Positions 1 through 24,502 of a stretch of DNA of 64,000 nt are shown piece by piece. The DNA is taken from positions 3,410,001 through 3,474,000 of the forward strand of contig CM038998.1 of assembly GCA_017499595.2 (NCBI GenBank), written 5' to 3'. The notes beneath the pieces are model-generated. The model saw only the letters and a list, made by a program, of their open reading frames with translations. It ran no database searches and was not told the origin of the DNA. Within the stretch, counting starts at the first letter, position 1; every line of letters begins with the position of its first letter. The stretch is from Psilocybe cubensis. Its lineage: Eukaryota. The position numbers and the translations under genes were made by a program.

Positions 1-2320
1 AGTGGAAAAAGGAGCCATCTAAAAGGTTGTCTTATATACTTATTTCTTGGTAAACGAACGGAGCAGCAAGAGTTCCTCGAGCTCCACCAATCCCGTCACG
101 GAGAGGTGGAAATCGTTCATTTATCCAATGACGTCGGCCGACGCAAAATCTTAATCATCACGTGATGAGACGCGTCTCTGCTGTGGCTTGCAGACTTGCA
201 GACCAGTTGACTTGTTCTCCACTCCCAACTTCTCGGCGCTTCTCCTGTTTCCTGTCTGAGAGTCTTGTTTATTCTCCACATATTTGCTGGTTATTTCTGT
301 TCATTTTATACTTAAATATTCTTCCTCACAAAGCTGGGGCACACATTGGCAGTCGCTTTGTATAGTATGGCTGGGTTTGAACTGTCCGTCACCCTCCACG
401 CCATCGGGCCATACATATCTTAGTACAGTGGATCATATGCCCACTACTAGCTATGTATATCATGACTGAGGGTGTATCTTTGCTGCATTTTGCCATCGAA
501 CCGTCACATCGAACTGTTCTATCCTCGATCACAGGACGCATCGTGAATTCTACTTCGGTCATTTCATCACCTAACAGGCTTGGAAGGTGGAATAGTGCCA
601 TGTTAAGTGCAGGTTATTTTCACCCTCTTTGCTGAAGTTAAGGGGTATATATATATTTCGTTGTGGTTAGTACATGCAGGTCCTAAGACCTCTTCGTATC
701 TCCCACCGTATACCAATGCAGCGATCCTGATTCAGTAGTTAATGAACATATCATGACTGTGGCTCCGAATGACGATATGTGGTGCATTTCTACTCGTTGA
801 TGTCACTCTCCTGTAGCATTTTTGTGTCAAAAAAATCTCCAGTGACATATGCTGCATCGTGTACGGAGAAGGTCTACCTTTTGAGTAGCTAGAAAAAATA
901 TCTCCAACCAGCATCGTTGGTTATCACCAATAGTTCATGCCTAGGCACCTGTCAGTTTTATTAATAATGGTATCTAATTTTTACTCTTACGGATATCTAT
1001 CTATTCGGCGGTGTGATCGAGTCAAGAGGCGGTGACTCCTGAACCAAAGGAGGAAGGTCAAACAACGATATGTCGACACTGAGAAGCCAATGTATCATCT
1101 CATGGTTATTTTCTGGAAGGACCTGATGGGAGAGTGAACAGTAAGGACAGTAAAGCTCATCTCGGCGTCATCGTGCAAGATTGGACTTTCTTTTTTCAAA
1201 ATTCATACCAGTGAAAAGTAAGTAGAAGCATACAGCCACGTATTTCTATGTGTATACGTTTCAAGAGCTAGGTGTTATGCCGTTATCTATGCACCCAGAT
1301 GGACTTGATCACGGCATATTTTCCTTCAGCGAGTTTTCTGAGGCTCGTCGACCGTCAGATTATCCGAGTCAGTGAGTCCATCATGGTTTAGACTACTTGT
1401 ATGATATATAATATAACAGAAGATATTTAATCCTGGGAGACCAAATTTATATGTGATTAGAACTCCAGATCCCAGACTGCGAAGGTAATTAGTCACTACT
1501 TCCAATAAAAGCAGGCGTCCTTCCTTATTTGGTAGTATTATGTTTCTGGAATTTCGAAGTATTCGAAGATTTATGTAAACACGAAGTTGTACGTGCAAAC
1601 TTACAACTACCAGTCTCATCATTGGCAAGCCAATGTGAGTTGCTGGAGGTGTAGAGACTGGATTTGGTACAGACGATACAGAGCAAGGAAAACAACTTGG
1701 GTATGTACGAGTCAAAAGATGTGCCATATCTGCGAACGAAAGAGCGAGCAGTGGCTCGCAAAGAAGCACCCCAGAAAAGAAGTGGCCCAGAAGCAGATAG
1801 ATATTACTGGAACGTCCAGGTGCATAAAAACTATTAAATACGCAAAAACCATAGAATATAAGCCCGTGTGGTCGTCAAGATGTGGGTCTGGATGATGTGG
1901 AATGTGGGGATATGAATGGCAGGGTTGCTTGGATAATTTGCGCTACATGATAGTGATGTTGGATGGATGGATGGGGAAGTGGGATGTATGGAAATGCAAA
2001 ACAGGAGAAAGATGTTGCAGACGAGAACTAAATATGTTTCAAAGGGAATAAGCTAGGATAAAAAGGGGGAGCTGGAACAAAGAAGAACAGAGATGGGTGA
2101 TATTGTCCGAGATCAAAACGTCGTCGCAGATGATTTTCGTAAAGGATAAAGATTTTTGCATCAAAATATGAAAGAAACCAAGGAAATATGCGTGGGTCGA
2201 GTTCGTAGCAACGGCATTCGACGATAAAAATTCGTCTTCCAGAAGTCGTTTGCAGGCAGTCGTGTTGTCGTGTCGCAGTCGGAATAAAAAAGTGAGGGAA
2301 ACGTCCAAGTGTGCCTGTGT

Positions 2321-3265
2321 TTAAGCACGGACAGAGCGCCAGCTGCTGGAGTGAGTCATGGCGGCGTGGTTCGCAGACAGGAACTTGGACTTGTTTGCGG
2401 CCTTGGGGCCACCTCCGAGCATGACACCGCCAGTAAGAACGGTAGTCTTACCCCCATCGTATGGAGTGACCTCGGTCTTGGTTGTGTCGACAAAGACGCG
2501 AGCTTGACGAGCCCTCTCGCGACGAGAAGGTTTGAATTCGCTACTCTTGGAAGAGGTCACGGAGGTGCGAGAGGAGACGCTGTCGGAAGTGAAGGAAAAG
2601 CCGGAAGAGCTCGAGTTAGAGGAGCGAGAGCTGCAGCGAGACTGTTCGGAGATGCTTGAAAGGGGAGAGGTGGATCGCGCAGGCCTGGGGAATTGAGTAA
2701 TGATTGGGGTCACCCAGGTAGGTGCACTGATTTCGTCAGCAAGCATAGTGAAAATCTTGTCTTCCTCCTCGAAATCGTCTTCCAAGACTTGTTGAGCAAA
2801 AGTTTTGCGAGGAGCAACGATAGGGCGAAGAGATGCCTTGATCATTGGCTCGCTGAAGACTGGGGCCGAGATGGGTGCAACTTGTTCGATCTTCTCGTCG
2901 GACCAGACATTGACAATCTTATTCTGGCAGCGAATAGCAACACATCCCGGGTCGACGAAGAGGTCAAACTCTGTGTTGCCGAGGAGAGCGATCCAATCGA
3001 ACCACTGAACATTAGTGGCGGCACAGGCGGACCAAACGGGCCGAGGGGGCAAGCAGGTAGGAGAGAGGGTCATGCAGCGACGGCCCGAGCCACGAATAGG
3101 GTCTGTGGGAATCCACGAAGGGGCGTAGTGTGCGGTGAGGTTGGCCTCGAGCACCATTTGGAGTTTAAGGAGAGTGGAGGGTGCATACGAACCAGCCAGC
3201 TTTGCGGTGAGGAAAGTGACGGTGTGGGCGACAGCAACGGAAAGAGACTCGGAAGTAGATGCCAT
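2321..3265 (-). CDS. BTG/Tob (APRO) domain-containing protein, 314 aa, single coding exon
   Basis: ATG at 3265 (MASTSESL...). HYAPSWIPTDPIRGSGRRCMTL resembles BTG Box A and EFDLFVDPGCVAIR resembles Box B. Ser-rich linker follows. Two putative 5'UTR introns and a TATA-like TTATAA lie upstream at ~3586-3591. Confidence 0.75.
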   Translation of the reverse strand: MASTSESLSVAVAHTVTFLTAKLAGSYAPSTLLKLQMVLEANLTAHYAPSWIPTDPIRGSGRRCMTLSPTCLPPRPVWSACAATNVQWFDWIALLGNTEFDLFVDPGCVAIRCQNKIVNVWSDEKIEQVAPISAPVFSEPMIKASLRPIVAPRKTFAQQVLEDDFEEEDKIFTMLADEISAPTWVTPIITQFPRPARSTSPLSSISEQSRCSSRSSNSSSSGFSFTSDSVSSRTSVTSSKSSEFKPSRRERARQARVFVDTTKTEVTPYDGGKTTVLTGGVMLGGGPKAANKSKFLSANHAAMTHSSSWRSVRA

Positions 3266-4148
3266 TGGTGAGACGTCAGGGAAAGGGTATCGTCCGGCGA
3301 TAAAAGAGCGTATAACGAAAATGGAGAGGGAGCTGGTTGAGATGAGCTTCTGCGAGAGTGGGTGCAGGAAGAAAAGTATGTAGCACAAGAGAATGTGAGA
3401 TCTAGAAAATTAGCGCGAAAATGAGACGGGCGTTTATATTGAGCCGCGACTCGGAAGACTTACGGGCTAAAGAAATGAATCAGCGGAAGCAATGCAGACT
3501 GAATTTGAATGGACACTAACCTGGTCTAAGAGAGAGGAGAGAAAGGAAACCTGGTCCTGATCACTATTGCCCATCCTAACCTCTCTTATAAGGCGAGGCT
3601 AAAAACAAAGGACAATTACACACACGTGGCCACGCTTTCCTTTTGTTGGATACAATAAGCCTCTTGACTCTCTAGCCCCGACTCTCACAGCGCAAGGCGA
3701 CCTTGTATTCCTTGCCAGCTTCTGGACATCCCGACAGTACCTTGTATTCCCATCAGTCTTATTGTCAATTACATTGCATCACGTACTGCTGAAGCCCTTT
3801 TGTTGAATCCTTTCTTCTTCGATTTCTGATATTGATCGATGCTCCCTGAACCGGTTTGAGTTATCATTAAGCCGACGGTCATTCTAAAAAATACGCCAAG
3901 CGCGCCCACAGTTGCGGATCGCAGCCAGAAGTAAGACCAGTTTGCAGACCTGCAAGCCAGATCGCTGCTCTGCTCGCTCAAGTACCTACAAGATCAGTTT
4001 ACAGACTTGAGGGGACGACGACACGCCAAATACATGTGTCAAGAGATCACCATTCTCCAGTGTTACCGCGCTGTTTTCTGACACGGAGTTACTCCAATAC
4101 GGAGCCGTCGCTCACTAGCTCCATGTTCTTTGCAAGAAATGCGGGGTG

Positions 4149-4156: not shown

Positions 4157-4353
4157 CCAAGTCATCTGCCGGTGCCGGTGTCGGAGAATGAATATTCAAA
4201 TACCGCGGAAGAAACGCAAACCTTGTTTGCACTATACACACAACTTGCCGCCCGCCCTCGTAGCTCACAGCGTCAAGCCAACAAAAACAAAAAGAGGCCT
4301 CCTGCCCTTCCACATCACTTTCGAAAAGCAGATTTTTAGGACTCCGTATCACA

Positions 4354-4822
4354 ATGGTGTGTATCAACCTATGATCCACAAGACAAGCCATGCTGACCGA
4401 GTGAAAAAAAGACTCTCGCCGTCGATCTCCTCCACCCCTCCGCTGAACACGAGGCCAAGCAGCACAAGCTCAAGCGTCTTGTACAGTCCCCCAACTCGTA
4501 CTTCATGGACGTCAAATGTCCTGGTGAGTGCTTTCACCTCTAGCCCCCTTATCCAACCCCACGTCTCGATCAAATTCATATATTGAACCCCAAATACTCA
4601 TGGTATCCTCGTTTCTGTTCAGGCTGCTTCGCCATCACCACCGTCTTCTCGCATGCCCAGACCGTTGTTGTCTGCCCCTCTTGCACGAGCGTCTTGTGCC
4701 AGCCCACTGGTGGAAGGGCCAGGTTGACTGAGGGTGCGTTCCTCATCGCAGCCATCTCTTGCTTTAAATCGTCTAACCTGACAATTTCCGTTCCAGGCTG
4801 CTCATTCCGTAGAAAGAACTAG
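4354..4822 (+). CDS. RPS27: 40S ribosomal protein S27 (eS27)
   Basis: Exons 4354-4356, 4412-4523, 4623-4733, 4797-4822 give [83 protein letters not shown]. Confidence 0.98.
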
Positions 4823-6639: not shown

Positions 6640-8175
6640 CTATAGTTTTGATTGAGGTATGTCTTCGGCGGGACCTCTAATGTTAGCACGGACAACGCCT
6701 TCTTGTGTCATTACTGCTACCAGCGTTCCATCACGAGTGAACATCTGTAATCAAATGTCAGTCATATTCCTAGTGGACTGGGTAAGAAGAGTCGGAATAG
6801 CATGGAAACCCACCCTTCCGTGAACAATTGCACGTCCTGAACCGCCACGAGGGCAGTCTATCTATTAAAATAATCAGAATCATACCCAAGAGGAGATTTA
6901 GACAAGTTTGAACCAACTTCGTATAGAAGCCAATCTCCGGCGTCGAAGTCATTGCTGGAGGGAACGTGATAAATGGATAATACTCGTCGAGCCAGAGGGG
7001 TATACGTACTTGTAAAACCAAATTGCGTGGTCAAGAGTAGACTGGAGTATATATGATCTAGGTTACTCAAGTGGCCCAGTACAGAACATCACAGAGGCTT
7101 ACATTCATGCTCAAGGAATCTGGGCCTTTCCCTCCTCGCTTTAATCTCATAATTCTGCCAGCAGTTGAGATGCTGTTGAAATGTAATATCAGCGTCGAAT
7201 TTGCAATGTCTCGTGAATTATCTTACAAATGCAAGTCTGATTCATAGGCGAGAATACACTATTCATTCATTCAGTTGACTATATCAAAGGTTAGTTGGAT
7301 ATACGCACCTTTTGGAACGGTGCTTCATATCGGGGTATATCTCTTGCTTTCATCCAATACACATAGCGCTCAATGCCGTCTGAGCTAACATAAGGCCCTT
7401 TAGCTGATTTAATTGCTATTGGACTTCGAGCACGCTCCTAAATAATGTGAGCGTCCCATCAAGATTATAATAGAAGCAGGGAAACCCACTTGAAGCCGAT
7501 CCTGGAAAAACTTGACTACATTCGGCGACGAATTGGGATCCTGGATGACGCGGGCATAGTTAACTTCTTCGTCAGGGCATTCCTCTGGAGGTGGAACAAT
7601 AGGCATTTTCCATTGGTGAACTGGTTGCCATGGCTCAGGTTTTTGGAACGAGCACACCATGATGAAAATGATGCGTCCGTTTTGGATTGCTTTCACAGAA
7701 CGAGTAACGTAGGATCTGCCATCGCGCACCCGTTCCACACTGTATACGATAGGGGTTGAAGGGGATGCACTCATTAAGAAATAACACTATATTGATCAGC
7801 ACTTTTCTTTATACCGTAAAAAGTTGAAAATAATACATACATGCAATGACTGTTAAAGGTGCAGTAACATATTAATTCCAGAAAAATCCGTAGTTTAGAT
7901 ATGATGCATACGTGTAGTGCAAACGCTGGGTCAACACAATTCGTAGCCGACACTAAACCCTGGCTAATGACTTGTCTGAATGCCGGTCCCAGTCAACAAC
8001 GATGTTGAAACGATAGGAAACAACAACGGCACTAAAAGACTCACCCACCAAACGCACCACGAGCAAGCAAAGGTAACCATAAAGACTTCGAACGAAAGAG
8101 GTTTACTTCAATTTGCTCTACTTCGAGTGAGGTAGAGATTTGCTCATGCTCGACTTGGTTCAATCCACCGTCCAT
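6640..8175 (-). CDS. TES1: peroxisomal acyl-CoA thioesterase II (Tes1/ACOT8 family)
   Basis: Spliced peptides RGAFGGQVISQ, HSLHCYF (9-nt microexon 7841-7849), VERVRDGRSYVTRSV, STLDHAIWFY, GTLVAVMTQEGVVR. The C-terminus is QSKL* (PTS1). Confidence 0.93.
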
Positions 8176-8941: not shown

Positions 8942-10122
8942 TCAAAGCTCTTCAACCTCAATGGTGAAGCCACACTCATGACATACTTGCTCTCCGATGC
9001 CGTCCCGAATGCCCTGCACTTGACTAAAAACATGCTTATGCTCAGCATCTTTTCGCCTCTGCCAAACGCCTTCTTTTGTTCGCTTTCGAAGCTCTTTTAA
9101 GCTCTGTTCAAACTTCTTGTTTTTCTTTTTATTCTTTTCCGCTGTTCGTCTTTCAAACTCGGCATCCAATGCTTCGGGAGATCCCCATTTCTTCCAAGCG
9201 AAGTCTTCAACTTGCCAACGCAGATACAACATCATGTTAGCGTAGGTAGAAGCGTGGGGATTGGCTTTGAGTAGATGTGGCATCAGTTCTTCGTCCTGGA
9301 GTTCAGCTGTATGATATCTAAGTTAGCAGAATTTGATAGGGAGGTTACTGATACCACACATACGATCCGTGAGCAAATAATCCTATAACGCATTTTGATA
9401 AGTATCTAAACTTTTATAAGAGTTTTCAAGGAAAACATACGGCTTTACACTCTGTTTTCGTTAATAGACTGTACTTTTCTGGATATTCGCGTTGACAGGG
9501 CTTACAGACCAGACATTTGAATACTTTCATAAACGTCGGGTCGATGTCCATGGAGTTACATTCTCTGCATTTTGCATTACGGTCAGGATCGAGAAACATG
9601 GCTAGGGAAAGTATCAGAAAGCCAGGACATTGTGAAGATACAGACGACGCACGCATATCCAGATTGTGTACATCTCTTTGCTTCTCTCTTTCCTTTTCCT
9701 TTCTTCGTAGTTCCTCGTCTACTTTCTTGCCATCGTCATCTAACAAGAAGCCTCCCTTGGTATTAACCATTTTTGAGAGATCATATTCGAAATATGTTCC
9801 AAGACGCGAGTCTCGTTGCAGCGGTTTGGAGGATGAGAGGATAGTATCATTTCGCGCTGCAGCTCCGGAGAGCGGTCGCTTGTTGTTAGAATTCAGAGCA
9901 TTGGAAGAAGAGGATTCTTGTTCCCTTTGACGTTGAGCATCTTTGGCTATATATCAGGCAGTGTTTCAGTTTTTCCGATTCAGATATAGCCTGAGTACGT
10001 GCTACAACACCTTTGAGTCGGTTGATTTCAATTTGTTTGATATGTTCGGGCGTTGCCTGAAGGAAAGTCGAATCGAATGTTCGAGGAGGAGGAGTGGATG
10101 GTCTTTGATCATTAGAGGACAT
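8942..10122 (-). CDS. RAD14: nucleotide excision repair protein Rad14/XPA
   Basis: YFEYDLSKMVNTKGGFL, zinc finger CRECNS...CKPC, [54 protein letters not shown], C-terminal CHECGFTIEVEEL. Confidence 0.96.
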
Positions 10123-14668: not shown

Positions 14669-16397
14669 ATGTTGACGTCGTTGAGGAAAGCGGCCTCATT
14701 GGCGCGTGTATGTACTAGTTACAATCAAGATTTTCTTTTCTAACCTGTTCAGCAGACTGCATCTGCAGGTCAGAAGCGATTCCTGTCAATACATGAATAC
14801 CAATCCATGAAGCTTCTTAACGACGTCAGTTTTTTTCTTAACCTCGAGTTATGTGTATCTTAAAGTGGAAACTAGTACGGAATTGCGACACCGAAAAGTG
14901 TTGCCGCAAAGACACCTCAGGAGGCTTATGACGTCGCAAAGAATTTTGGTAGTGTTGTTGAGTTGTGGCTAAAAAGGTATCTAACAAATTTTGCGTAGGC
15001 TCTAACAACCTCGTAATCAAGGCTCAAGTGTTAGCTGGTGGTAGAGGAAAGGGCAAATTTAACAATGGCTTCCAGGGTGGTGTTCATATGGTCGACAGGT
15101 CAGTATTTCCATACATGATCTATTGCAAACACTTATGAATATCCTCCCTCTTTCAAGTCCTAAACAGGCCCAGGACATTGCTGAGAAGATGATTGGTGCA
15201 AGTCTCATCACGAAGCAGACAGGTGCTGCGGGACGAGTGTGCAATGCTGTCAGGAATCTTTTTTGTAATCTTATACCAAAAATACGTATTCTAACCTATA
15301 AAAACCCCAGGTCATGCTGGCAGAGCGTAGACAGCCTGAGCATGAATACTACGTCGCCGTATTGAATGACCGTGCTTCTCAAGGAGTTGTGTTGGTCGCC
15401 TCTGCTCAAGGTGGCATGAATATCGAGGAGGTTGCCGCCAAAGATCCCAATGCAATCATTACCACACCCATCAATTTTAAAAAGGGACTTTCCAAAGAAG
15501 AAGCTATTGCTGTCGCTCAGAAACTTGGTTTCAAGGATGCAGATACCCAATCGCAAGCAGCTGATGTATTCATTAACCTATACCGAATCTTCAAGGAAAA
15601 GGATGCTACCCAGATTGAGATCAACCCTATGGCCCTTACCACCGACGGCCAAGTCTTATGGTATGCTATTATTGATTGTAAAATCTTTCAGAATTGCTTA
15701 AATCTCGCCTAGCATGGATGCTAAATTTGGTTTTGACGACAATGCTGAGTTCCGTCAAAAGGATGTCTTCGGTCTCCGTGATATCTCCCAAGAGGAACCC
15801 TCGGAGGTAGAGGCCCAAAAGGCCAACCTTAACTTCATCAAGCTTGACGGTACCATTGGTTGTTTGGTCAACGGTGCCGGTCTTGCAATGGCTACAATGG
15901 ATGTGCTCTCGCTCCATGGTGGCAACCCTGCTAACTTCCTCGACGTCGGAGGGTGTGTCTTTTGCAATCTATTACTTGAGATCACTTATTGACGCGACTA
16001 CAGTGGTGCTACTCCTGAGACTGTCAAGAAAGCTTTCGAAATTATTGTATCTGACCCCAAGGTCAAAAGCATCTTCATCAATATCTTCGGCGGTGCGCAC
16101 ATCTATATTCTCAGCACGCTATATTATATAACTTTTGCTAGGTATCATGCGATGCGATTATATCGCGGAAGGTGTCATTAGGGCTGCAAAGGAGCTAGAT
16201 CTTACTATTCCTCTCATTGTGAGATTGAAAGGCACCAAGGAAGCTGAAGCCAAGAAGTAAGCCCTTCACAATGGTGGAAGATAATAACATATGTCTGACG
16301 TGTTCATCGTAGGATGATTAAGGATTCTGGCTTGAAAATCATTCCTTTTGACAGCCTGGATGAAGCCGCCGCACAGGCTGTCAAGTTGGCTGTTTAG
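14669..16397 (+). CDS. LSC2: succinyl-CoA ligase beta subunit, mitochondrial
   Basis: Presequence [98 protein letters not shown]. Confidence 0.98.
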
Positions 16398-16578: not shown

Positions 16579-19500
16579 TCACCAAGTCGGTCTGACGAAG
16601 GGTTGAGTAGGGGCAGGATTAAAGCCACTATGGGAAGGTTGATGATGTCCATTGTGCGCTGCAAGTTGTTGCTGTTGTTGAGGCGGGGGTGGAGGCGGGG
16701 GTTGGGGGGGCGGTATTTGCCCGTTATCTGCGCGTGGCTGACCACGGCCAGCTGGAATAGGCATGTAGCCATGATTTTGAGGGACCTGCACTGCATGAAG
16801 CATTACTGGACTACTGCTGTACATTGCTGACCCAGGGTGGGCATGTGCATGAGACATGACAGGACTCATGACCGGAATGCCACGCCCGCGGCCTGCATTC
16901 TGTGCTTGGGGTGTCGCGGGCATCATGTTCGGGGGCGGTGGTTGAGGGCCATAGCCGGGTGCTGGATAAGGCATTATTTGGGCAGGATACGGACCAACAG
17001 GGCGCATCATATTACTGTGTGGTTGAGACGTTGGAGGAACGGTCATCCACATTGGTTGGCTATATAACGGTGTATGCCCATTGAGCTGCATCCTACTCGG
17101 AACAGGGCTCGAGGTCATTGGGTGTCCATACATGACGGGTGCCGGTGAGTGGCTCATCATAGGTGAAGGATATGGAACATAGGCAGCAGGACGCATACCG
17201 TTTTGAGGTACAGGAGGATACGGATAAGTAGCAGCAGTGGGACGAGCTACAGGTGCGTGAGTAGACGGAGGCGAAAACGTTGCCCGATGCTGTGGCTGAC
17301 TTGAGGCGGAGGAAGACGTTGGCACCGTTTGAAAAGCCCTAGTAACATCATGGAGTGACATTCGCGATGGAGCACTTGGCAATGACGGTGGTGGTGTTTC
17401 CCCGTCCTCGGACTTCACATCCTGCAATGTGAATGGTAAAGCAGTCAAATCATCAGCAATGCCTTCCAATGAATTGACAGGATGTAATCCGGCCTTATTG
17501 GACGGTTGTGACCAAACGGCTTTGAGGTGCTCAGGATCTGGGGCACGAGCAGGGGAGTCCTTCATGGGTAAGCTCACTGAAGACCTGCTCCATGATCCCG
17601 CGGAATGATGGGTGGGAGGCGTCGCGGGGACGTGTTCATTCTGAAAGCAGAGGTAAGCTGAGTCGTCGAAATTATCACAAAACACCACTTACTGAAGAAT
17701 CTACCTTCTCCATTTTGCTAGGCGCAAACGACGGTACCCGATCCTCAGCAGATGCCAGAACCGGTTTCACTACTCCATTGGTCACTGGGGTCACTGTTGC
17801 AGCTTTCTCCTCCAGGGCTTGTTGTGTATCCGTGGTGGAAGATGTCTGGGTATCTATAACATCGTCCAACTGACTACCCACGATGAAATTGACTATCGGT
17901 GTTGCATCAGCTTCGATGATGCGAGAATCACGACGAAATGCTACAGCAGAACCTGCTGGCATCTTAGGTTGTGCACGGGGGCGTACTGCAGAGTTGCTTT
18001 CAGATTTTGTAGGAGAATTTTCGCTGGGCTTGGGGATTGAAGCAATGTGAGCCTCTGGAGGGGTGCTATCTGGAGGAGGCGAACGACTTGTGGTGTTCAG
18101 TTCAGCAGCGAAGTCTACCTTCGCAGGAGAAGGTGTAACTGGGTTTCTCCAAGTAGCCACTCCATCTGCATTGGTTGGTCGCCCAAACGCACCAATCCCG
18201 TTGACTTTCGTCGGGGCTAAGGATGGTATGTTGACTTTGGGACCCCTGCGCCTGGGAAGGACGATGCGATAGTTGATTTTACCTTTGTAGATAATAGGCT
18301 TGCGGAACAGTACGTCGTTCAGCGATAAGTCCCTGCGATTCATTTCTGCCACTGGTGGATCGAAAGAGAGAATGTCCATGCGGGCTTGAAATGGAGGTCT
18401 GAAGAAAGCGTGCAACTGTTTCTTGTTAATGAACGGTACAGGACGAGATACCGACGGAAACCGAAGCACACTTTTGCCTGCTGGTGGTGGTGACATTGGG
18501 GGCTGCAGTGCTGTCACCAAGAAGACTTCCTGAGGTTCGTCGCTATCGTCAAATTTGCGTGGCCTAAGATGTGGAGGAATCCAACGGTCTTTAGTAGTGA
18601 CTCTGCTAGTTATTGAGGCAGATGTGTGGCCTGACGAAACTGTACGAGAAGGCTGCAAATCTTGATCGGTAGGATTGTTCACAGGAAGTTCTTTCGGCGT
18701 TTCATGTGTTTGCATTGTAACAAGTACACCTTTGATCCGCGACATAGCATCATCCAATGCTGTTATCGTAGCTTCCTTGTAAAATGCTTGATTACGAGGA
18801 GTTCGTTGAGCAACGAGATTATGCGGAACCTGTACTGTTTGCCCGCTTTCGTGTTGACTAAGCGGTTCTTTCGTCAAAAGCGCAGCAGTATCGGGAGAGG
18901 ACGCCTCGTCCTTGGCGGGCAGTTGATTTTTGTTGGGTGAAATACGCTCCCGAGCAGATATCGAGGAATCAACTTGTTCGATCTCATCAGCAACCTGGGT
19001 TTTGGTATCGTCTGTTCTTGCTGGAGGCTCAAGCACTTCTTGGGAAACCTTTCTCCTCCAAGCACCGAAATCTGACTTCTTCAAGGATGGTTCGATTACT
19101 GTCGTCTCTTCAAAGAAATCGCTAGCGATAGGCCGTGACGCTCTTGAAGATAGAGCAGCAGCAGGATTGGGTACCTCCTTGGAGCTTTCCAGCGTTGATT
19201 CCGAGACGTCTTCGTGGCCAACGAACTTGCCCATTTCTGTGAAGTCTACAACTTCAAGTTCGTCTTTCGAACCATCTGCAATAGATTCCACTTGCTCCGC
19301 TGCAGAGGGCCCTGAAGAAATAAAGTTGGAAGGTATAGAAGGGCGAGATTGGATCTGCCGTGGTCGAGGAGATGTTGGAATCGGATTTGGTCGTACTCTC
19401 CAGGATTCTGTCTGAGATGCAGGCGAGGGGGGAACGGGTATCGGGCGCGGAGCGGTATTGCTCAGTCGTCTTGTGGGCCGAGATTCCGTGCGTGGGACGG

Positions 19501-21978
19501 CCTTCAAAGACGGTGGGCGTTGCAAAGATATCCTTTTTGGAACGGCCTCCGAGTTATTGGCATTTCCAGCTTGCAGAGAAAGTTCGGAAGATTTTACTGC
19601 AGCTTCGATTAACTGGACAGCTTCTTTCTCCTGCATAAATGATTGGATAAGATGTTAGTCTCACAAAAGAAAAAGGGTACATGCCTTAGCTGCGGCCAAA
19701 GCTGCTTCCTCTTCTTTTCGTTGTTGTTTCTCTTTCTCAGCTTTCATCTTCTCTTCAATCTCCTGAGCTTTACGTCGTGCCCTCTCTTTCAAAGCTTCGC
19801 GTTCTTCCTCTTCCTGCTGTCGCCTTTGCTTTGCTCTTTCGGCAGCTGTGTGCATCACATCTTTCCGAACTTCATCTAACTCGGGTGCACTGAGAGCGGG
19901 TAAATTAGCGCCAGGAGGGACAACAGGGGATACAACATTGAGAGAGGCTTGAGAAACAGCTGGAGAATGAGGAGGTATCCGTCCAGACGTGGAAACCGGT
20001 AGTCCCGCAGGTGATTCAGCAGGTGAAAATCGTGAGTCACGCGAAGGCAGGCGTCTAGAAGGCATACTTGGAGAAACTTGGGATAAATGAGGTGGTAGCT
20101 GGCGCACGCCTTCTTGTGCAAATTTCTGTGCGGCATGTAGAGGTACCGGTGGAGGACCTATGTTGCTTCTTCTACCCCGATCAGTATTGAAGTCACGACC
20201 TCCAGTATCTACATTTAAGGGAGTGTGATGATCTCGCGACAGGCGTGGGCTTGGTGGAGGACCATCTCGCCGCGGATACTGTTCTTTGTCTCTGTTTCGG
20301 TCGCTGGTAAAACCGTTAGGAGGACCAGGGACATAGTTGCCATTGCTGCCACTAAACCTTCTTCCACGAGAACTGAAATCGGCACCTGCAGGTTTCTGAA
20401 GAACCTGGATGTTATGTGTGTCTCGAGATGATTTAAGCTCCTGAGTGGACCCCGTCCCTTCTGGATGTTGAGAGCGCTTCGAGCCAAACGGCCCTGGTTG
20501 TTGGCGATGAGTTTGACTATAAGGCTCTAACCGATTTGAACGTTCGTTGAACAATACTCGAGATGAATCTTGAGGTGAATGAGAAGTATGTGAAATTACG
20601 GGAGAAGCACTAGGACTAGCTGAATGTGGAGGAACATCTCTAGGCACTGAGGCAGGAGAATTGCGAGACTTCGGCCAACTGCGGTCAAAATCGTCCACAA
20701 ATCGATCTTCTTTGCTTACAGGTATCGTCGATTCCTTGAAATCGTCTGGCTGGGATCTCGGCACGTTTCCTGTAGATACTGACCCAGGTTGATTGGATTC
20801 GCTGGACTCGATTTTGTATTGTCGGCCATCTCCAAACTCAATTACCCCTCCAAGGAAATTGTCATCATCTTCTTCCATCTTCGAGGGGACTAAAATCAAA
20901 CATGTGCCACTAAGAATGCGTTCTGTAACATACCTCATCCCAATGATGTACGTTAGGATCTAAATGAACGCCTCTGAATGCATCAGCTTCCTCCGATCGT
21001 AATAATTTCGCTGCATTATCAGAAGTAGCCTTCGCTTCTTCAGCTGCTTTCGCTTGCTTGCGTGATGTGGATGTCACTATTCAAGTATTGTATTGAATAA
21101 CGATAACAAATGTAAAACTGGAAAAGTGCCTACCATTGGCAACCTCAGCAGCTGTTGGAAAATCACTGGGCTCGAAGTCGGGTCTAACAACAGGGGGTTT
21201 GACATTACCCCAAACCGGTTTGTTGGGGGTGTTATCCTTCTGAGAGGAGCTCATTTGTGGAACGGCATTCCTTGGTTGAGGAAGAATGACTTTCCCAGCA
21301 TGAGGCAGCTGTGGGGCAGCTGTTGCCGAAGGTTGCGAAACAGGAGCGATTGGCATTGGAGATGTGCTATTCGGCGAATTGGTGGCTGGAGATGGTGCCA
21401 CCGAGGACGGACGCGACCATCCAGCAGTTGTCGATGCTACAGCAGGACTGGCAGTCAATTTAGCGGTGACGAGACGAGAGTGCGACGAAGTAGGCTGAAC
21501 GGCAGGTCGTGCTATGATTAGAACATCCAAGTTTTAGAAATCAGGCAATATTGACCAAGGGGAAATACTCACTCGCAGGGCTGCCCGACTTCGTAATAGA
21601 CGAGCTACCTGAAGACGTTGACGTCCCGGATGCTGTATTCTTTTCAAGAAATTTCTTGTTGATGTTTACGGCGCTAAATCGTTTCGGATGTGGGGCAACT
21701 GGTGTTATTATGGAGGTTTGAACATTGCCTGAGCCCAATGGGACTAGAGAAGGGCGAGATGAAGTTGCATTGGACTGGGCATTGGCTGAATTCTGGGAGG
21801 AATTCTTCTCCAAATGTGGATCAGGGACTGCCACGGAAGGAGTTGACGGTGAACCACTATCCACATGCTTTGCCCTAGCAGCCTCCACCTCGCCCCCCGC
21901 GCTCTCCAGCACCTGTTCTTTCACCTCCTGGCCAGTCGAATCCGATAGCAGCTTAGACTCTGGAGTAGGTTGAGCCAT
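16579..21978 (-). CDS. large (~1,700 aa) low-complexity protein, PRRC2/BAT2/MOS1-like
   Basis: Six long exons joined by short introns, one of them GC-AG at 19631-19684. Motifs KRFSAVNINKKF, SDFPTAAE, HHWDEMEEDDDNFLGGVIEFGDG, coiled coil AAERAKQRRQQEEEEREALKERARRKAQEIEEK, and a Pro/Met/Gln-rich tail. Confidence 0.8.
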
Positions 21979-23351: not shown

Positions 23352-24502
23352 ATGTCCTTCCGCGCAGTCGTTCGAGCAAGCCGTGCTTTTGGGGCTGTCT
23401 CGACACGCCCAGCGACGTACGCGGCAGTCTATCCCAGACGCCAGATTCATTCCACCTCTGCGTCCAAAGGTGAGCGACATCTTCCGACTCAATACCCGTA
23501 GTCATACTAAGCTATCTTTGCAGCCTCGACCTCGCCGTTCACTGAGCCCACTTCACCTAACCCCACTGTGACGCTCTACTCAGAGACCACTGAGGCACTT
23601 CATACATACGGATCCTACCTAACTCAATGTCTGCCTAAATTCATCCAACAGTTCTCGGTCCTGAAGGATGAACTGACCCTGTACATCGCGCCTTCTGCGG
23701 TCATTCCCGTCCTAACTTTCCTGCGCGACCACCAGCAATGTCAGTTCAAACAAATGATGGATATCAGCGGTGTTGACTTCCCCGAGCGCGAGAAGAGGTT
23801 CGAAGTCGTGTACCACCTTCTCAGTGTCAAACACGCTGGCAGAATCAGGGTCAAGACCTATGCTGGAGAGGCAGACCCGGTTCCCAGCTCCGTCGAAGTG
23901 TTTAGGGGATCCGACTGGTAAGTAAATGCCGCTTATAGTTGTGGCACCTCCAGCTAACGCGAACGCTGCTCATAGGTATGAACGCGAAGCTTGGGATCTT
24001 TTCGGCATCTTTTTCGAAGGTCATCCTGACCTGTTAGCTCTCCTCTCTTTCTTTCTTAAACGCCTACTGACTGAAATACCTCCAGCCGGCGCATCCTGAC
24101 TGATTATGGTAATTTATCTTTTCCGAAAATACACCAACTTTATTGTGTTTAACTTGCCAATAGGTTTTGAGGGCCACCCTTTGCGTAAAGATTTCCCTTT
24201 AACTGTGAGTTCATTTTATTCTTTTTTGGTACCGCTGTAAGATTGAGTTTCCACCAGGGTTATACTGAGGTTCGCTACGATGAAGAGCGCAAACGTGTTG
24301 TCTACGAACCTCTCCAACTTACACAGGCATTCCGGTATGTTCCTCAAGGCCTGGGAGGTTATCGCAAGCTCATTAGCACCATTGTTTTAGCAATTTCGAG
24401 TCGTTATCGCCATGGGAGCAAGTCGGAGATGGCACAGCGGGTCGCCGCCCCGACAATCTCAAACCCCTGCCTCCGCCGAAATCAGAGGAGGTCAAGAAAT
24501 AG
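23352..24502 (+). CDS. NDUFS3: NADH:ubiquinone oxidoreductase 30 kDa subunit (NDUFS3/NuoC)
   Basis: [87 protein letters not shown]. Confidence 0.98.

Follow-up and report, generated by a model that had tools for sequence, protein, structure and literature searches.

Does a mushroom encode a member of the BTG/Tob protein family and, if so, does that protein connect mRNAs to CCR4-NOT, a deadenylase complex? The question is raised by a gene in a 64,000-nucleotide stretch of the Psilocybe cubensis genome (contig CM038998.1, forward-strand positions 3,410,001 to 3,474,000; hereafter the window), which lies on the minus strand at window positions 2321..3265 and for which an original prediction had proposed a BTG/Tob-like adaptor of CCR4-NOT/Caf1 deadenylation. 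We find that the gene encodes a BTG/Tob-fold protein on a real but divergent fungal branch. The proposed family identity is borne out by HMMER, in which the protein reaches 56.6 bits with PF07742, whose curated cut-off is 23 (E 2.5e-15; residues 12–116, window 2918–3232; profile positions 5–110 of 117), and PF07742 is the only Pfam family that matches the protein at E<=10. Searched against sequences in the Protein Data Bank (PDB), the single protein finds BTG2 at E 2.2e-4 with phmmer, and a profile made from 24 orthologues recovers BTG2 (E 1.9e-7), Tob1 (2.1e-4) and FOG-3 (5.3e-3). An AlphaFold2 model built from 75 family sequences places the BTG/Tob (APRO) domain at residues 4–122 (2900..3256, minus strand), with a predicted local distance difference test (pLDDT) score of 92–98 in ten-residue blocks over residues 11–120 and of ~98 given for residues ~8–122. 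The five predicted helices (residues 4–23, 29–50, 60–63, 75–84 and 88–94) and four predicted strands (64–67, 100–105, 108–113 and 116–122) follow the order of secondary structure in BTG proteins. Foldseek comparison of the model with the PDB yields exactly 10 matches at E<=0.001, all of them Tob1, BTG2/TIS21 or FOG-3 and including 2d5r_B, the Tob chain of the Tob–hCaf1 complex; the best is Tob1 with a template-modelling (TM) score (target) of 0.89–0.90 and a root-mean-square deviation (rmsd) of 1.5 Å, and the eleventh has an E of 0.73. The original prediction had named a missing match to the APRO fold as evidence that would overturn it, and the predicted structure instead matches, at E<=0.001 in the PDB, BTG/Tob proteins only.

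The coding sequence (CDS; 2321..3265, minus strand) is intronless and translates as 314 codons with no internal stop, followed by a stop codon at 2321–2323. The ATG at 3265 is the earliest in-frame ATG of the stop-to-stop frame 2321–3409 and agrees with the N-termini of 23 aligned orthologues (MAS...SLS...), with which the C-terminus aligns likewise. All strings quoted in the original prediction are present in the translation, namely VAVAHTVTFL...KLQMVLEANLTAHY, WIPTDPIRGSGRRCMTL and EFDLFVDPGCVAIR, and re-translation of the sub-feature coordinates places WIPTDPIRGSGRRCMTL at 3065–3115 and EFDLFVDPGCVAIR at 2930–2971. Sequencing runs differ within the CDS at positions 2798, 2875 and 3125; two of the three polymorphisms are synonymous (F156 and Y47) and the third is P131S, in a variable linker. 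An antisense frame at 2660–3271 (plus strand) is also open over 203 amino acids (aa), as expected because it lies opposite a real gene.

Homology searches place the protein among many relatives. A word-seeded search in which 8000 candidates were scored found 638 matching proteins at E<=0.001; within the best 120 of these 638, the nearest match, at 91% identity, comes from Psilocybe cyanescens, identity ranges from 56–91% across Agaricales, Boletales and Atheliales among the matches listed, and all organism-named matches are agaricomycetes as read from their names. Taxonomy lineages were checked for Psilocybe (Agaricales) from this search, for Clathrus (Phallales) from the longer proteins with the tail motif and for Dentipellis (Russulales) from the profile search with divergent sequences (both below). 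HMMER run exhaustively over 1.84 billion cluster representatives (clusters at 50% identity) gave 250 matches at E<=0.001, 148 at E<=1e-10 and 66 at E<=1e-30, and an Atlas feature search placed 28 of 30 matches in the PF07742 set, with Basidiomycota as the commonest phylum. Judged by these homology searches, the gene is a member of a conserved agaricomycete family. We measured conservation in two sets, the 24 orthologues, which come from several orders, and the wider set of 75 family sequences from which the frequencies given below are taken.

We examined the surface through which animal BTG/Tob proteins bind Caf1. A box A-like motif, WIPTDPIRGSGRRCMTL (residues 51–67; 3065..3115, minus strand), and a box B-like motif, EFDLFVDPGCVAIR (residues 99–112; 2930..2971, minus strand), align to BTG2 and Tob1, with core strings GSGRRC and LFVDPG, and almost every one of the 24 orthologues has GSGRRC and D[LF]FVDPG unchanged. 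The boxes named in the original prediction are thus both recognizable, and what does not carry over from animals is the aromatic of box A, which is Arg in 48 of 75 sequences, and the Trp of box B, which is Phe in 45. In BTG2, the substitutions Y65A, W103A and D105A abolish CAF1 binding (PMC2588512); in TOB1, H45A, F55A, D65A, W93A and D95A lower it, and Tyr65, Asp75 and Trp103 of BTG2 are termed essential for binding Caf1a/b (PMC3517456). We mapped these contact residues through HMMER alignments to BTG2 and Tob1. BTG2 His53 (TOB1 His45) corresponds to Ser50, where Ser or Thr occurs in 58/75; BTG2 Tyr65 (TOB1 Phe55) corresponds to Arg62, Arg in 48/75; BTG2 Asp75 (TOB1 Asp65) corresponds to Leu72, Leu in 51/75; BTG2 Trp103 (TOB1 Trp93) corresponds to Phe103, Phe in 45/75 and Ile or Leu in 21/75; and BTG2 Asp105 (TOB1 Asp95) corresponds to Asp105, Asp in 52/75. 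Leu72 is followed by an inserted Pro-Pro-Arg, a 2–3 residue insertion with P73 in 69/75 and P74 in 70/75, which forms part of a family-specific LPPRP loop (residues 72–76; 3038..3052, minus strand) identified from the alignment and the family counts. On this mapping the acidic residue of box B and a nearby aromatic are kept, and the re-wired part of the interface is its box A side; this pattern could mean co-evolution with a fungal Caf1 or loss of the interaction.

Beyond the APRO domain, most of the protein is predicted by AlphaFold2 to be disordered, yet much of this tail, like the domain itself, is well conserved among the 24 orthologues. Closest to the domain lies an acidic amphipathic helix followed by a PTW.TP..QFP segment (residues 154–193; 2687..2806, minus strand). 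The helix, KT.AQQLLEDD.EEDE.IF.MIADEI, is predicted at residues 156–180 with pLDDT block means of 74–81 over residues 151–180, and conserved positions of the two elements include T155 (62/75), A157 (63/75), Q158 (60/75), F172 (54/75) and P187 (64/75). A Ser-rich linker follows (residues 197–232; 2570..2677, minus strand), whose conserved S-R-x-S-S-R-S-S patch (S209 72/75, R210 65/75, S212 67/75, S213 70/75, S215 68/75, S216 68/75) lies in a region with pLDDT <50 (residues 209–232) and is a candidate phosphorylation cluster. Near the C-terminus lies the hallmark SRRERARQARVFVDTTKTEVTPYDGGKTTVLTGGVMLGG (residues 247–285; 2411..2527, minus strand), which contains YxGGxTTVLTGGVMLG and by residue counts is the family's most conserved element: within SRRERARQARVFVDT.KTEVTPYDGGKTTVLTGGVMLG, residues T267–G284 are identical in 24/24 orthologues, the only columns invariant in 75/75 sequences are W91, G272, G279, G280, L283 and G284, and Y269 (74/75), W88 (74/75), V276 and V281 (both 73/75) are near-invariant. 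This element is predicted to be disordered, with pLDDT 50–60. The last conserved module is a terminal Trp-Arg pair (W309 R310; 2336..2341, minus strand), with W[RK] occurring within the last 25 residues of 57/75 sequences. The conserved Trp residues flanked by small residues in PTW.TP and [ST]WR may resemble the Trp motifs through which GW182 proteins dock on CNOT9. We also considered the string SSEFKPS as a PAM2 motif and rejected it, since the string is not conserved: EF.P occurs after residue 200 in 3/75, and at column 244 Phe and Tyr are each found in 6/75. In Tob tails, PAM2 motifs bind the MLLE domain of PABP.

Searches with the tail found no relative outside the family. The C-terminal motif region has no match in Pfam, the PDB or NCBIfam, the last 79 aa give 0 matches at E<=10 by phmmer against the PDB, and an Atlas feature search with residues 236–314 that excluded PF07742 clusters returned no usable look-alike. 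All five proteins longer than 550 aa that carry the tail motif also carry PF07742 and, because the motif in these longer proteins always accompanies PF07742, the motif and the BTG fold appear to act as one unit. Three of the five bear extra Pfam domains, radical SAM/BATS in two and the complex I 30-kDa subunit in one, and look like gene-model fusions with a neighboring gene and not true fusion proteins. The GGVMLG core of the motif also occurs in a reversed amyloid-beta 42-1 control peptide (PMC5363225 and others); the overlap is probably a coincidence, though it shows again how Gly-zipper-like and beta-prone the motif is. Judged by titles, GGVMLG in the literature leads to amyloid-beta work and one paper on a scorpion venom peptide.

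Compared with characterized members of the family, the P. cubensis protein has an architecture like that of human TOB1 and TOB2. It shares their APRO fold (TM score (target) 0.85–0.90 and rmsd 1.5–2.1 Å to 5ci8, 2z15 and 2d5r_B), both have a long disordered Ser-rich tail with short conserved motifs, and at 314 aa it is similar in length to TOB1 (345 aa). In contrast, identity to TOB1 in the fold alignment is ~18%, His45, Phe55, Asp65 and Trp93 of TOB1 are replaced by Ser, Arg, Leu and Phe so that only Asp95 is retained, and the fungal tail has YxGGxTTVLTGGVMLG and a terminal WR in place of a conserved PAM2. Of the proteins with solved structures, human BTG2/BTG1 (and mouse TIS21) match best in sequence, with 24–25% identity in the fold alignment and the common strings L-T-x-H-Y, W-x-P-x-x-P-x-x-G-S-G-x-R-C and V-D-P. 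BTG2, however, has ~158 aa and contacts PABPC1 through a short box C tail (PMC8632095, PMC4773420), whereas the fungal tail is ~190 aa long with other motifs, and Tyr65, Asp75 and Trp103 of BTG2 are replaced by Arg, Leu and Phe. The tail motifs of Tob and of BTG1/2 are both absent from the fungal protein. Dictyostelium discoideum BTG (DDB_G0285069) has been described as the first non-metazoan family member and, like the fungal protein, is a non-metazoan APRO protein with a long tail (423 aa in Dictyostelium) encoded by a single intronless gene; its boxes are highly conserved with those of animals (box A 15/19, box B 7/14), whereas the fungal boxes are more divergent by comparison with that published description (PMC2837350). 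Because Dictyostelium has a BTG protein, the APRO domain predates animals. C. elegans FOG-3 is likewise a divergent BTG/Tob fold with a lineage-specific function and an altered surface; it is found by Foldseek, but matches the fungal protein less well than Tob1 or BTG2 do. FOG-3 dimers multimerize and bind RNA, and the protein has a basic surface (PMC6066285).

A midpoint-rooted FastTree phylogeny of the 75 sequences, with clades labelled by a simple custom pattern rule, splits the family in two, separating a deep sister clade of 22 box-less sequences from a box-bearing clade that includes the P. cubensis gene. In the box-less clade, box A is absent or degenerate, with an 8-residue deletion and a gap in many sequences, and box B is degenerate (for example DLIIEPS or ELIITNS). 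The Pfam BTG profile still matches only 3/18 of these divergent sequences, and a profile search with the 18-sequence alignment retrieved only 17 matches; hhalign nevertheless aligns the 18 divergent sequences with the 24 orthologues at a probability of 100% (E 2.9e-69, 273 columns). One Flagelloscypha genome carries at least 5 box-less copies, two pairs of which share contigs.

These observations bear on what the protein does, and we rank a Tob-like deadenylation adaptor first, a plausible role to which we give slightly less than an even chance. The protein combines a folded APRO head (~4–122) with a mostly disordered tail carrying four conserved modules: the acidic helix, the Ser/Arg patch, the Gly-rich invariant motif (YDGGKTTVLTGGVMLG) and the terminal Trp-Arg. 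In this role, by analogy with Tob and BTG, the APRO domain would use its box A/box B face to dock onto Caf1/Pop2, a nuclease of CCR4-NOT, conserved peptides of the tail would take the place of PAM2 and tether the protein to another conserved mRNA-associated factor, and the Ser/Arg patch may serve as a phospho-switch, with the combined outcome that target mRNAs would be deadenylated or repressed under the control of a regulated adaptor. We place this role first because the fold and both boxes are strongly constrained in the gene's own clade and because Tob, a protein that bridges Caf1 and PABP (PMC7430666), likewise combines an APRO head with a conserved, disordered and Ser-rich tail. Remnants of the interface also speak for it, namely Asp105 (52/75) and the aromatic Phe103 (45/75); the counterparts of Asp105 are required for Caf1 binding, as reported for BTG2 D105A and Tob D95A (PMC2588512, PMC3517456). 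Three points weigh against this role. Across the five Caf1-critical positions, the fungal protein has one identical residue (Asp105), one conservative replacement (Trp to Phe) and three non-conservative ones, so that by sequence mapping the canonical contact set is not conserved; because these contact residues are replaced, canonical Caf1 binding becomes less likely and membership in the fold is untouched. No PAM2-like motif is conserved in the family. And because the box-less clade has lost the boxes but keeps the C-terminal motif, which is intact in all of its sequences, selection across the whole family preserves something other than the Caf1 face.

The last of these points favors the main rival, a repurposed BTG fold, a reading that we consider doubtful but quite possible. 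In this case the APRO domain would be a scaffold that does not bind Caf1 and the invariant C-terminal motif would carry the function jointly with the acidic helix and the terminal Trp-Arg; these elements would dock on some other conserved partner, maybe outside mRNA decay altogether. Apart from W91, all residues invariant in 75/75 sequences lie in the C-terminal motif, and the retention of this motif in the clade without boxes A and B, the non-conservative replacement of 3/5 Caf1-critical positions and its occurrence in longer proteins only together with PF07742 (5/5) all agree with this possibility. The strong conservation of boxes A and B in the gene's own clade argues the other way, for a functional surface at the location of the Caf1 face, and neither the Atlas nor the PDB search with the tail suggests an alternative partner.

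Elements of the Tob-like adaptor and of the re-wired interface can also be joined in one reading, which we regard as unlikely in its entirety. Mushroom-forming fungi would then keep an ancient BTG–CCR4-NOT axis that yeasts lost, against the view in reviews that fungi lack BTG/TOB homologues, with Caf1/Pop2 bound through the re-wired face (Arg62, Leu72-Pro-Pro, Phe103 and Asp105), YxGGxTTVLTGGVMLG and the terminal Trp-Arg would form a new motif for docking a conserved factor of mRNA decay or translation, and members of the box-less clade would act as competitors or decoys for the same partner. Far less probable is a mode of action like that of FOG-3, in which the BTG domain would self-associate into dimers or multimers and bind RNA directly and would not act as an enzyme-recruiting monomer. 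Both the fold search (5td6, E 1.5e-6, TM score 0.71–0.79) and the profile search (E 5.3e-3) recover FOG-3, and Arg62 replaces an aromatic next to Arg63 on the box A face; Tob1 and BTG2 nevertheless outscore FOG-3 in both the fold and the profile searches, and we identified no counterpart of the nematode-specific linker that FOG-3 uses for dimerization. A chance open reading frame, pseudogene or annotation artefact, for which we found no supporting point, the open antisense frame being expected in any case, is excluded by the PF07742 match, the 638 homologues conserved over their full length, the high-confidence predicted fold, the spliced contig cover and the synonymous polymorphisms within the domain.

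The Tob-like adaptor role would require a Caf1 partner, and we sought a stand-in for the basidiomycete nuclease by scanning metagenome contigs with a degenerate pattern based on the Caf1 motif MDTEFPGVVA. The scan marked at least 120 loci; a quick tree was made of 64 candidate Caf1 open reading frames (at least 270 aa), 50 frames were aligned and two were compared with the PDB. One candidate, L043, matches human CNOT7 with 338 bits and S. pombe Caf1 with 293. None of the eukaryotic Caf1 sequences that the scan yielded could be assigned to a basidiomycete.

Transcript structure was read from contigs of one study (runs X1 and X2), which are guessed to be RNA and carry GT..AG joints, no run being recorded as RNA, and compared with two DNA-like runs (X3 and X4) that are colinear with the window and lack the joints; such contigs cannot reveal true transcript ends. 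One X1 contig spans 2337–3401, 3521–3574 and 3623–3808 and joins 3401 to 3521 and 3574 to 3623 (GT..AG, minus strand), which defines three exons of the 5′ untranslated region (5′UTR) at 3623–3808, 3521–3574 and 3266–3401 (region 3266..3808, minus strand) separated by introns of 48 nt (3575–3622) and 119 nt (3402–3520). An X2 contig gives continuous cover of 1697–3119, which places at least 624 nt of 3′UTR at 1697..2320 (minus strand). The contigs cross the CDS without joints, and an intronless CDS, a spliced 5′UTR and a 3′UTR of at least 624 nt are thus supported, in agreement with the spliced 5′UTR and long 3′UTR of the original prediction. At the 3401/3521 joint the X1 contig holds three extra letters (GGG, plus strand) that match neither flank and may stem from a difference between strains, a micro-exon or a fault of assembly. 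The joined 5′UTR is 376 nt long and contains five upstream ATGs, all within the two upstream exons, one of which starts an upstream open reading frame (uORF) of 59 codons that ends 10 nt ahead of the main ATG and hints at translational control if the spliced isoform is the major one. The TATA box that had been named as a sign of a regulated gene fared less well: the sole TATAAA upstream of the gene (3433–3438, minus strand) lies within the 119-nt intron of the X1 contig and hence not upstream of the observed 5′ exon. It sits about 30–35 nt upstream of the point (3401) where the last 5′UTR exon starts, and a second, proximal and uORF-free transcript start near this site is conceivable. X2 contigs give no cover at 3440–3760; we discarded this gap as a sign of a second, TATA-driven start, which is not a permissible reading of it.

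The neighboring genes give no functional hint. A ribosomal protein S27e gene is divergently placed at ~4334–4822 (plus strand; PF01667, 64.9 bits), with a 55-nt intron (4356–4410, GT..AG) that is spliced out in X1 and X2 contigs. Further away lie an acyl-CoA thioesterase fragment (7412–7786, minus strand), an XPA-like exon (8945–9322, minus strand), an ATP-grasp exon (15302–15709, plus strand) and a complex I 30-kDa subunit exon (23511–23918, plus strand); the position of the last ~20 kb from the gene, together with the fused gene model found elsewhere, suggests loosely conserved synteny. At 16582–20959 (minus strand) we noted three long adjacent open frames of 369, 659 and 432 aa, which have no Pfam match at E<=1e-4 and may be one large gene with no assigned family.

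According to a 2023 review, fungi have no identified BTG/TOB homologues, and reviews regard the BTG route as absent from fungi since model yeasts do not have it (PMC10157403). In the library of papers that we searched, none deals with a BTG protein of fungi, and in a large review of agaricomycete fruiting-body genes the terms BTG, Ccr4, Caf1 and deadenyl- are absent from the first 300,000 of 653,132 characters. Public databases already label orthologues "Anti-proliferative protein domain-containing protein", "BTG family" or "protein Tob/BTG". The original description of an unstudied family therefore holds for the literature searched and not for discovery of the domain, which had been annotated automatically. 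The existence of the domain match was known; what is new is the analysis of the re-wired interface, the invariant tail motif and the box-less sister clade.

In animals, BTG/Tob proteins tie signalling to global mRNA deadenylation. The agaricomycete family would mean either that BTG-type control of poly(A) tails predates animals and was lost in yeasts, or that fungi recruited the fold for a different task, and its invariant C-terminal motif offers a sharply defined handle toward the partner of the protein.

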